A stretch of 13,448 nt of DNA from Candidatus Aenigmatarchaeota archaeon (GTDB taxonomy: Archaea > Aenigmatarchaeota > Aenigmatarchaeia > GW2011-AR5 > JAGGXF01). Numbering within the stretch: position 1 is the first letter of the stretch; the number at the start of each line of letters is the position of its first letter. The stretch spans positions 1 to 13,448 of the forward strand of contig JAOZPR010000020.1 of NCBI GenBank assembly GCA_029932645.1, in the 5' to 3' direction. Below, piece after piece: positions 1 through 3,000 of the stretch. A program made the position numbers.

Positions 1-3000
1 GACGAACATCGTAATAAAGGAACCTCAGAAGGTATAATCAATAATTATTATGTGAATATTACAAGCCGCTGGGATCAAAAGCGGCTGGAAGCTAAACTAA
101 TTCCTACAATGAAAATTGGTGTTGAAGAGAAAAAAATACCTCTCAATAATATACCGAAAAACGCCATACTTAAAGACCCTGGGATTTACCAATCAGGATT
201 TAATGAACTTATTAAAGGATTCTATGTATCAGAATTGGTGTTTGGCAATTTCGAGAGAGAGAGCTATCCGGTTTTCAACAAGCATGGTCAGGCGACAAAT
301 CTAAATAATAAACGCTAGTTTTAAATTAATAATGCGCCGATCGGGATTTTCATAACCTTTTCCTTTTATAGCCGAAAGGCCTGAGTTTTCTTTTAGGTGA
401 ACTTAAGCCTTTTCTTTTTCCAAAAGAAAAGGGTTAGTTTGAACCCGAGTCATTAGCTTTCCTCTTTGTTGTTCGCAGCCTTTTCTAAAGGCTGGGTTGG
501 AAGGCTAAGGTCCTAGCCAGATTTTCCAAACCTTTCTACAAGTTCTTTCCACGAAAGCTTTCTTTTCAAGAAAGGTTTCCTAGACTATCGGCGCATAATG
601 TTATATGCTATGAAGTTTATTCGGGGCACAGATTTAAATGTTTTTTCTGCAGACTAACATACTTTTTAAATTAACGGATTAAATAAATCATATGGATACA
701 CTGGCAATTCTATTCGGTGTCTTTGGTGGTCTGGCGCTGTTTCTTTACGGCATACAGCAGATGAGCAGCGGCATGCAGAAGATAGCAGGAGACCGGACTA
801 AGAAGATTCTTGAGACAGTTACAAAAAATCACATTCGTGGCATTTTTGCCGGTACTGCGCTGACAGCTGTTATCCAAAGCAGCAGCATAACAACCGTGCT
901 TCTTGTTGGGCTTGTTGATGCCGGTCTGATGAACCTTACACAGGCTGTCGGTGTAATAATGGGTGCCAATATAGGCACAACAGTGACAGCACAGCTTGTT
1001 GCGTTCAATGTTGGTTTATACGCCTTGCCAATAGTTGCACTGGGCTTTGCCCTGTCATTTTTCGGCCGAACGACCAAGCAAAAGTATGCTGGACAGATGT
1101 TGATTGGATTGGGTATTCTTTTCATAGGTATGAATTTCATGAGGCAAGGCGTGCGACCGTTACAAGGCAATGAATACTTTATAAATATGCTAGTTAATTT
1201 TGGCACGGTACCGCTTTTAGGTATATTGGCAGGAGCTGCGTTCACAGGTATTATTCAGAGCAGTAGTGCGACTACGGCGCTGGTTATTGCCCTTGGTTCT
1301 GAAGGTATTATTGGTCTTGGCGCAGCCATAGCCATAATCCTTGGCGCGAATATAGGCACGTGTGTGACAGCCCTTCTGGCATCCTTTAGGACCTCGCTTA
1401 CGGCAAAGAGAACAGCACTTGCTCATATCTTGTTCAATATTTTTGGCGTTCTCATATTTTTTCCGTTTCTCCCGTGGTTTACCAACATTGTCTCTTTCAC
1501 GTCTGCTGATTTGGCAAGGCAGATTGCCAATGCACACACACTTTTCAATGTGGTCAATACCATAATATTCATACCATTGATCGGTGCTCTGATAGCGGTC
1601 GTTACAAAACTCTTGCCTGGCAAGGCCCATAGGATAGAAAGAGGGACAAAATACATAGACGACCACCTTCTCAGCATGCCTTCTTTGGCTCTTGAGCAGG
1701 TAACGAGAGAGGCCATAAGAATGGCCAAGCTTACGCAAGTCATGCTTGCGGACAGCAGAAAGACCTTTATGAGAAATAACAAAGCTGTTGTAAAAACACT
1801 CATAGCAAGTGTTAACAAGAGAGAAGAAGCTGTCAATGATATAGACAAAAAGCTTGATGCATATCTTCTGCGGTTGTCTGAGAGAAACCTTTCAGAGGAA
1901 GAATCAAAAGTCTTGGCAGGCCTGGCGCACATTGTCACCAATATAGAAAGGGTCGGCGACCATGCACAAAATATAACAGAGCTTGCTGAATATAAGTTAA
2001 AAAACAAGCTCGTGTTTTCAAGCCAGGCAAAAAAGGACCTGAGCAAGATGTTCAAGCGGGTTGAGGAGATGTATAACAAAGCAATCTTGGCTTTCAGAAA
2101 GAAGGACTCAAAACTTGCTGAAGATGTCTTGGAGATGGATGAAGAAGTGGATTACATGGAGAAGAAGTTCCAGGAAGAACATATCAATAGGCTCAGGAAA
2201 GGTGTCTGCAACCCAGCATCTGGAATAGTTTTTGTTGATTTGCTAAGAAACCTGGAGCGCATAGGAGACCACGCCGACAATATCGCTGATACGGTCTTCG
2301 ATACCTATCACTAAGATGATTTATCACTGATTTAAATAATTTAATGATTTATCTGATTAACAGAATAATTGAGTGATTAATTGAGGGGGTGTGGAGATGT
2401 TTTATGAGTTTATTCTGTTGGTGTTTGTTTTTAGCTTTTTCTCGTCATTCATAAAAATCGTCAAGCAATACGAACTCGGCGTAAAGTTCACGCTTGGGCG
2501 TTTTTCTGGCATAATGCAACCGGGTTTGAATATACTTATTCCTGTAATACAGTCCTGGCGAAGGGTGGATATGCGTGTGAAGGCTGTTGACGTGCCTGAC
2601 CAGGAGGCTATAACAAAGGACAATGTTTCTGTGAACGTGAACGCTGTACTATATTATAAGGTGGCAGACGCCGAGAATGCTATAATAAAGGTCGAACACT
2701 ATGGCTACGCTGTGTCGCAGCTCGCACAGACAACCATGAGAGACGTCGTAGGTGAGGTCACACTGGATGAGCTTTTGAGCAAGAGGGACGAGGTAAGCAA
2801 CAGGATACAGGAAAAGGTTGACAAGGCTACAGACCCTTGGGGCATCAAAGTCGAGTCAGTCGACTTAAAACATATAGAATTGCCGGAAGAGATGAAGAGG
2901 ACCATGGCAAAGCAGGCAGAAGCAGAAAGAGAACGGAGAGCAGTGATAATCAAAGCAGAGGGAGAAGTTATCGCTTCTCAAAACCTCGCAAAGGCCGCCA

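Follow-up and report, generated by a model that had tools for sequence, protein, structure and literature searches.

The tRNA-Gly(UCC) gene and its three introns

The window, a stretch of 13,448 nucleotides, is contig C33 of the genome of an archaeon of the Aenigmatarchaeota (DPANN), which is referred to here as G000 (718,593 bases on 43 contigs, 89% complete). Near its beginning lies a tRNA-Gly(UCC) gene on the minus strand, interrupted by three introns (Table 1). ARAGORN and Rfam made no tRNA call in the window. The gene was parsed with a pair-aware scanner in which an intron of at least 11 nt could be opened at any position for a fixed penalty of 10 bits. The scanner was given no knowledge of splice motifs, because circularity was to be avoided; its training set consisted of 64 uninterrupted tRNAs from relatives' loci. 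Splice geometry was scored after parsing, and a second, motif-aware pass was used solely for border refinement. The gene was parsed as 594-334 on the minus strand, with the discriminator at 333 and a score of 59 bits. This is the anatomy that the preliminary description had given (333-594, minus, introns of 58, 39 and 91 nt). When the introns were removed in silico, ARAGORN called the same anticodon on the spliced product, and the exons were 99% identical to those of the orthologue in a genome of the same genus (G001, 811 kb).

Table 1. Positions of the features of the tRNA-Gly(UCC) locus (numbered along the window) and of three further tRNA genes of G000 (numbered along contigs C5 and C27)
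Feature	Position	Strand	Remarks
tRNA-Gly(UCC) gene	333..594	minus	262 nt; product 74 nt, positions 1-73, CCA not encoded
Exon 1, tRNA positions 1-15	580..594	minus	parser traceback
Intron 1, 15/16 (D loop), 58 nt	522..579	minus	relaxed HBh'
Exon 2, positions 16-37	498..521	minus	anticodon UCC at 501-499
Intron 2, canonical 37/38, 39 nt	459..497	minus	hBH motif
Exon 3, positions 38-59	438..458	minus	parser traceback
Intron 3, 59/60 (T loop), 91 nt	347..437	minus	strict hBHBh' (4/4, 5, 5)
Exon 4, positions 60-73	333..346	minus	parser traceback
TATA-like box, preceded by an A-run (BRE-like)	632..638	minus	about 40 nt upstream of tRNA-Gly(UCC); sequence only
tRNA-Cys(GCA)	C5:5372-5489		motif-blind scan
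tRNA-Asn(GUU), three introns	C27:31229-31383		motif-blind scan
tRNA-Val(CAC), three introns	C27:15216-15376		orthologue-supported anticodon

In intron 1 the central helix has three of its four pairs and the inner helix 10 bp, the outer helix is absent, and the precise border may shift by 1-2 nt. A D-loop intron at 15/16 is also found in the Gly(UCC) genes of G001 (51 nt) and of a genome of the same family (G002, 718 kb; 60 nt). Intron 2 has a complete central helix (4/4), for which the anticodon stem (5 bp) serves as the outer helix. The TATA-like box would be the promoter of the gene; a TATA-like match lies within -60 to -10 of 29 of 41 tRNA genes of G000, a raw count with no background rate beside it.

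The intron-bearing form of the gene was present in contigs from the public metagenome runs of four separate studies, and no joint that skips an intron was seen among these contigs. The public runs that contain the window were DNA metagenomes of hydrothermal vents and marine sediments, with no RNA run among those listed.

Interrupted tRNA genes in the genome and its relatives

The motif-blind scan found 41 tRNA genes in G000, covering all 20 amino acids, and every one of them was interrupted. The same had been said before of every detectable tRNA gene, on the basis of 39 genes, 18 amino acids and 63 introns; the independent scan upholds the statement and changes the counts, the introns now numbering 67 after refinement. 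One intron is carried by 20 genes, two by 16 and three by five (previously 18, 18 and 3), the five being those for Gly(UCC), Ile(UAU), Ser(UGA), Val(CAC) and Asn(GUU). The intron lengths described for Ile(UAU) (16, 42 and 30 nt) were reproduced. For Ser(UGA), the 85- and 71-nt introns agreed, while the third measured 21 nt and not 19. The genes for tRNA-Asn and tRNA-Cys, which had been listed as not found, are both present (Table 1). The gene at C27:15216-15377, earlier called Thr(UGU), is a three-intron Val(CAC) gene; its orthologue in G001 has the anticodon of Val(CAC), and Thr(UGU) is another gene of that genome. For Ser(UGA), a parse with four introns was dropped in favour of one 85-nt D-loop intron, and a fourth intron in the acceptor stem of Asn disappeared upon border refinement.

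The 67 introns are 12-102 nt long (median 39). They lie in the anticodon loop (27), the D arm (24), the T arm (11), the variable region (4) and the anticodon stem (1, where three had been described), and 40 of them occupy non-canonical sites. Relaxed bulge-helix-bulge (BHB) geometry, defined as at least three of four central pairs plus a flanking helix, was seen at 54 of 68 motif-blind junctions, as against 7.7% of random pseudo-junctions, which bears out the earlier assignment of the introns to the BHB type. After refinement, at least three central pairs were present in 66 of the 67 introns and just two in the remaining one; three introns had a 4-bp centre but neither flanking helix reaching 2 bp. 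At 14 sites an intron-free orthologue was available from the comparison of G000 with G001, and the orthologue fixes each of these junctions. Removal of the introns restores a canonical cloverleaf: with its intron option off, ARAGORN assigned the identical anticodon to all 41 spliced products.

The scores of the 41 genes ranged from 49 to 85 bits, and the next match, when all 43 contigs were scanned unmasked, reached 16.4 bits; reversed and shuffled controls of non-coding segments gave a maximum of 13.6 bits. The parser also recognises intact genes, an intact Val(UAC) gene being its best match in G002. As ORF masking was found to conceal three genes of G001, all of G000, G001 and G002 was scanned unmasked. 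Genes longer than 352 nt exceed the span limit of the parser and are missed; one such gene, the 439-nt Trp gene of G002, was recovered via exon 15-mers, and the same rescue yielded no further tRNA genes in G000. Standard tools gave far fewer genes in G000: ARAGORN without its intron option made two calls and Rfam 13 matches. With the intron options, ARAGORN produced incorrect or partial calls, and hundreds of false calls at low thresholds.

No split or permuted tRNA gene was found in G000, where the parts of each of the 41 genes lie together in the usual sequence, and a search with exon 15-mers gave no stray tRNA halves beyond two contig-end overlaps. The anticodons are non-redundant, all amino acids are covered and intact copies are absent from the assembly; therefore, the cell must splice. 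The tRNA genes are probably working genes, the precursors of which would be matured by splicing. The genes for Ala(UGC), Arg(GCG) and Thr(UGU), and the rRNA genes, are absent from the assembly. Since both G001 and G002 have these three tRNA genes, each of them with introns, the earlier worry that an intact tRNA gene might lie in the missing 11% is much reduced. Introns in mRNA were not found in the comparison of G000, G001 and G002, in which the apparent cases proved to be an N gap and indels between genes, or in the coding DNA, about 170 kb, with which more distant relatives could be compared and where the matches were antisense frames.

The load extends to the relatives. All 44 tRNA genes of G001 were interrupted, by 72 introns. 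In G002 there were 89 introns in 43 of 44 genes (43 genes by scan, and Trp), Val(UAC) being intact. The two genomes have an identical set of 44 anticodons, which lacks Arg(CCG) and Leu(CAG), and because they share it, 44 may be the full set. In a genome of another family (G003), scanned with a looser mask over 559 of its 919 kb, all 22 genes found were interrupted; its Leu(UAA) gene has four introns, and ARAGORN accepted the spliced product. In two other members of the order, full-length Rfam matches were mostly of intact length (about 24 of 32 in G008 and about 25 of 35 in G009). Hence, the intron load spans the range from low to complete within one order.

The mature tRNAs of G000 and G001 are 92-100% identical (mean 97.8%, 38 orthologous pairs). 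Among 41 pairs of genes, the presence of an intron differs at 14 sites, with seven introns private to each genome. The 91-nt intron at 59/60 of Gly(UCC) is missing from the G001 gene, and G002 has an intron at that site. It is identical, letter for letter, to the 59/60 intron of tRNA-Asp(GUC) on contig C42. In contigs from the public runs, the depth over this shared intron was doubled and loose ends entered the Asp exon; the identity is therefore not the error of one assembly. Three T-loop introns, each of 84 nt, match one another at 94-98%, and two further pairs of identical introns occur in G002. These likenesses suggest recent copying of introns between tRNA genes that have T-arm sequence in common; copying between tRNA genes has been described for Thermoproteales (PMC4033280). 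Many introns are composed of recurring AT-rich hairpin modules, which form tandem repeats in the Trp gene of G002. Outside tRNA genes, the modules occur at no place in G000 or G001 and at 14 places in G002, partly in the Trp gene, so a free-standing mobile repeat is not demonstrated.

The splicing endonuclease and the cause of the intron load

G000 encodes one RtcB and one EndA. The latter is a single PF01974 match of 207 aa with both EndA domains, in agreement with the single alpha-type enzyme noted before. An unfiltered profile built from 110 order-wide sequences, which a very divergent beta subunit could escape, detected no second EndA subunit in G000, G001 or G002 (89-91% complete), the next match having an E value of at least 0.13. 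Each of the three genomes gave a single alpha match, and no beta or fused epsilon form was found in them. The best solved relatives of the protein are the M. jannaschii enzyme and the alpha subunit of N. equitans. It keeps the last strand of the homotetrameric M. jannaschii enzyme and, before it, the acidic loop, which we take to be L10; the N. equitans alpha subunit is without that loop. Relative to M. jannaschii, the N-terminal insert is absent, and six extra residues stand before the catalytic His. These residues align with the insert of N. equitans, which is also found in ARMAN-2, and by the definition of Kaneta 2018 they probably represent L3. No specificity loop of the CSL/ASL type could be recognised: Lys60 aligns with Lys161 (K161) of ARMAN-2, but the loop insert is lacking. 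The breadth of the ARMAN-2 enzyme is assigned to the ASL residues Y160 and K161 in the 2025 structure paper (PMC12397907).

Since the sole EndA keeps both homotetramer assembly elements together with L3, an alpha4 enzyme with broadened specificity is most likely what removes all 67 introns. Both homotetramer assembly and the cleavage of relaxed motifs are predictions from the retained acidic loop and last strand, and the role of L3 is putative. According to Kaneta 2018 (PMC5829648), the L3-bearing alpha4 EndAs of DPANN accompany more disrupted tRNAs. In the present order, L3 is found in 108 of 110 EndA sequences, including those of G008 and G009 with their mostly intact tRNAs; it may be noted that family f7, to which the intron-poor G008 belongs, has an added EndA form of 400 aa. 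L3 may thus be permissive, but it does not explain saturation.

We consider it very probable that the introns are spliced by an alpha4-L3 EndA and RtcB, and that they were gained, lost and copied at the DNA level until no intact gene was left. Together with its flanking exons, each intron would form a bulge-helix-bulge, strict or relaxed, of which EndA would cleave both bulges; RtcB would then ligate the exons. An EndA of broad specificity would render insertion nearly harmless. Introns could then come, go and be copied from one tRNA gene to another, mostly at 37/38, in the D arm and at 59/60, and lengthen by duplication of their AT-rich hairpin modules, the process continuing until intact tRNA genes are gone. 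Gene anatomy, BHB geometry, the enzyme genes, intron sharing and turnover between congeners are the observations on which this account builds; transcription, splicing, a tetrameric enzyme, the part played by L3 and the mechanism of copying are what it would predict.

Against a purely neutral fill-up stands the prediction of about four intact genes each in G000 and G001, where none was seen. Saturation may instead have been selected, the presence of one or more introns in each tRNA gene being favoured or required; the splicing chemistry would be the same, with a cause added. Possible causes are, for example, that an intron breaks a virus or plasmid attachment site (Randau and Soll; the anti-integration hypothesis, as summarised in PMC3293823) or that splicing is coupled to maturation. 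In permutations with region totals fixed, 3.7 intact genes were expected in G000 and 4.0 in G001 (P about 0.006 and 0.005), values that are overstated because G000 was picked out by its lack of intact genes and because the two genomes are kin. The deficit in G000 shifts to the one-intron class (20 genes, 14.3 expected), the three-intron genes numbering 5 against 5.7 expected. G000 and G001 each retain a single intron in Glu(UUC) and a single one in Gly(CCC), placed differently in the two genomes, and the duplicated tRNA ends that mark integrated elements were not seen in G000, G001 or G002, which also fits selection. However, no deficit was present in G002 (1 intact gene, 1.3 expected) or in the scanned part of G003 (0 against 1.2, P 0.25). 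An unbroken 3' exon of at least 45 nt remains in 9 of the 41 genes, and tyrosine recombinase matches do not track the load (three in G001, one in G002, none in G000, one in G008, none in G009). As two genomes show no deficit, the two congeners do not count as independent cases and G000 was taken up for this very trait, the deficit is just a weak hint of selection, and we regard a selected saturation as rather unlikely. A more specific proposal for the genus, by which an intact tRNA gene is selected against, every gene has to retain one intron or more while introns turn over and hop, all of translation depends on a minimal homotetrameric EndA that would owe its broad specificity to L3 and some introns host rRNA-methylation guides, seems to us unlikely; a candidate guide in the Arg(CCU) intron gave a best target pairing of 8-10 bp, with no target fixed, and a further candidate guide, in the Ser(UGA) intron, would be directed at 16S helix 44.

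The enzyme could also be a two-subunit (alpha-beta)2 form as in Nanoarchaeum equitans, with a beta chain that is too divergent to detect or that lies in unassembled DNA. The L3 insert shared with the N. equitans alpha subunit would agree with such an enzyme, as would the incompleteness of the genomes and the classical link of broad specificity to the (alpha-beta)2 and epsilon2 forms. A single-sequence search is, however, able to detect the N. equitans beta chain (E 5e-5), whereas three genomes gave no second match here, and the acidic loop that the N. equitans alpha subunit lacks is retained as in the homotetramer; a two-subunit enzyme is accordingly judged quite improbable. A reading of the inserts as artefacts of assembly or as dead insertions of pseudogenes, with the intact genes in unassembled DNA, is hardly credible and already largely refuted: G000 is incomplete and without rRNA genes, and the shared T-loop intron breaks contigs in the public runs, but three genomes agree in their set of anticodons, which is non-redundant (44 each in G001 and G002), exons are conserved where introns are not, and contigs of four studies carry the window gene with its introns and no intron-skipping joint.

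Relation to known systems

The closest case in load is that of the Asgard lineages Atabeyarchaeia and Freyarchaeia, in which 92-95% of tRNA genes bear introns (228 introns in three genomes, PMC11291895). Many non-canonical sites are used in both, and more than half of the Asgard tRNA genes have multiple introns (PMC11291895). The introns per genome are similar in number or fewer (67, 72 and 89 in G000, G001 and G002, as against an Asgard mean of 76). In contrast, 41 of 41 and 44 of 44 genes are interrupted here, in DPANN. The Asgard EndA is of the L1/CSL-loop kind (Kaneta 2018, PMC5829648), and at least two EndA genes appear for Atabeya-1 among the supplement rows, whereas a single alpha gene with L3 is present here.

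In Thermoproteales, 70% of tRNA genes bear introns (cited in PMC11291895), with more than 70 introns in Pyrobaculum calidifontis (PMC3218864) and a maximum of three per tRNA gene (PMC4033280); their multi-intron tRNAs go back to Sugahara 2008 and Fujishima 2010 (via PMC4033280, PMC3218864 and PMC11291895). G000 resembles them in having up to three introns per gene, in the sites used (D arm, 37/38, 53/54 and 59/60) and in the sharing of introns between tRNA genes. It differs in that all of its genes are interrupted, against about 70%, and that its enzyme is an alpha form with L3 and not an (alpha-beta)2 EndA with CSL. Its introns are long for the class and made of recurring hairpin modules, and its tRNA set is complete in amino acids with neither split nor permuted genes. 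Among eukaryotes, 92% of the tRNA genes of Cryptococcus neoformans bear introns (PMC4090602).

With its single alpha gene and C-terminal insert of the Nanoarchaea/ARMAN-2 type, the enzyme is like the L3 alpha4-type EndA of DPANN and Hadesarchaea (PMC5829648). In the sections of Kaneta 2018 drawn on here, no Aenigmarchaeota are named among the DPANN genomes, and the tRNA sets there are noted to be incomplete (PMC5829648). To that work G000 adds a full list of substrates, 40 of whose junctions are non-canonical, and the order adds L3 in intron-poor relatives. The kind of gene structure is thus already known, and both the link of L3 to tRNA disruption (2018) and the Asgard loads of 92-95% are already published; G000 and G001 are its extreme, with a distinctive enzyme pairing. 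In a literature search that left subscription papers mostly outside, we found no report of a 100% load, of such a load in Aenigmarchaeota, or of more than three introns in an archaeal tRNA gene, and we lay no claim to a record in introns per gene.

Compared with the published cases found, G000 marks the upper bound of tRNA intron load (100%, as against 92-95%), and standard tools largely miss the tRNAs of its lineage. Its 67 junctions form a substrate panel for asking whether an alpha4 EndA with L3 only cuts relaxed, non-canonical sites. With near-identical exons that differ in their intron sites, and an order in which the load runs from low to full, the question of why archaea keep tRNA introns becomes testable by comparison.

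Guide-like motifs within tRNA introns

The 37/38 intron of tRNA-Ser(UGA) carries box C, D', C' and D-like motifs, both in the genome under study (G000) and in a member of its family (G002). When the D' guide of the G002 intron was compared with 16S rRNA helix 44 of G002 and of the congener G001, all 10 of 10 positions were paired. For the G000 copy of the guide the pairing was 8 bp, and the Ser(UGA) intron of G001 (35 nt) was without a guide. The consulted portion of a review names tRNA targets, and no tRNA-intron guide aimed at rRNA was found in it.

A box C/D-like layout was also observed in the 37/38 intron of tRNA-Arg(CCU), where it is kept in G000, G001, and G002. 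Candidate targets of the first guide in this intron, with complementarity over 8–9 bp, are the 16S rRNA 3' end or the anticodon arm of the tRNA itself. The one-base frameshift in the fibrillarin gene of G000 may be a genuine disruption or a fault of the assembly.

Coordinates of the features described
Feature	Location	Counterpart or remark
tRNA-Ser(UGA), 37/38 intron with guide motifs	G000 C10:21677-21937	G002 C12:16486-16690
tRNA-Arg(CCU), 37/38 intron with box C/D-like layout	G000 C37:32425-32669	
Fibrillarin gene	G000 C27:6696-7339	one-base frameshift vs G001
Second EndA, about 400 aa, epsilon-like	G008:C2:64588; G030:C21:3706	others of family f7
tRNA-Leu(UAA), four introns	G003:C5:14724-15050 (L282)	
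tRNA-Trp, 439 nt	G002 C6:30415-30853	introns 145, 172, 50 nt
Adjacent Pro(UGG) and Pro(AGG) genes	G000 C5:10634-10929	G001 C6:29901-30102
tRNA-Pro(AGG)	G000 C5:10634-10725	
16S and 23S matches	G002 C13:6913-8665 and 9832-14359	

Intron architecture, exchange and the anticodon set

In G003, from another family, the introns of tRNA-Leu(UAA) lie at 15/16 (118 nt), 30/31 (31 nt), 37/38 (46 nt), and 59/60 (49 nt), leaving an anticodon exon of 7 nt; the 37/38 motif has an outer helix only once the 30/31 intron is out. The tRNA-Trp introns of G002 were enlarged through tandem repeats of hairpin modules. A small number of intergenic spacers in this genome contain these modules too, including one directly after its sole intact tRNA.

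Two D-arm introns, one of 28 nt and one of 19 nt, are divided in opposite ways between the adjacent Pro(UGG) and Pro(AGG) genes of G000 and those of G001, pointing to a probable exchange between the tandem genes. The Pro anticodon AGG occurs in G000, G001, and G002, and also in G009, whose tRNAs are mostly intact; no Pro(GGG) gene was found in the first three. Archaea rarely have anticodons with A34. A tRNA-Ile(UAU) occurs as well. The tRNA sets of G001 and G002 number 44 each. The searches of G000, G001, and G002 (the last two covered whole) yielded neither an Arg(CCG) nor a Leu(CAG) gene, although CGG and CUG codons are in use.

Splicing enzymes and rRNA genes in relatives

Family f7 possesses the epsilon-like EndA alongside the alpha gene; despite this second endonuclease, the tRNAs of its member G008 are mostly intact. 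The RtcB reading frames of G018, G029, G030, G033, G036, G039, and G040 are 914–997 aa long, and their match is interrupted after residue 50, which suggests that the ligase may contain an intein.

Neither 16S nor 23S rRNA is assembled in G000. Compared with G001, the 16S gene of G002 has inserts of 44, 62, 44, and 18 nt, and its 23S match extends over 4528 nt, the figure for G001 being 2948. Taken together, the inserts and the longer span suggest putative rRNA introns in G002.
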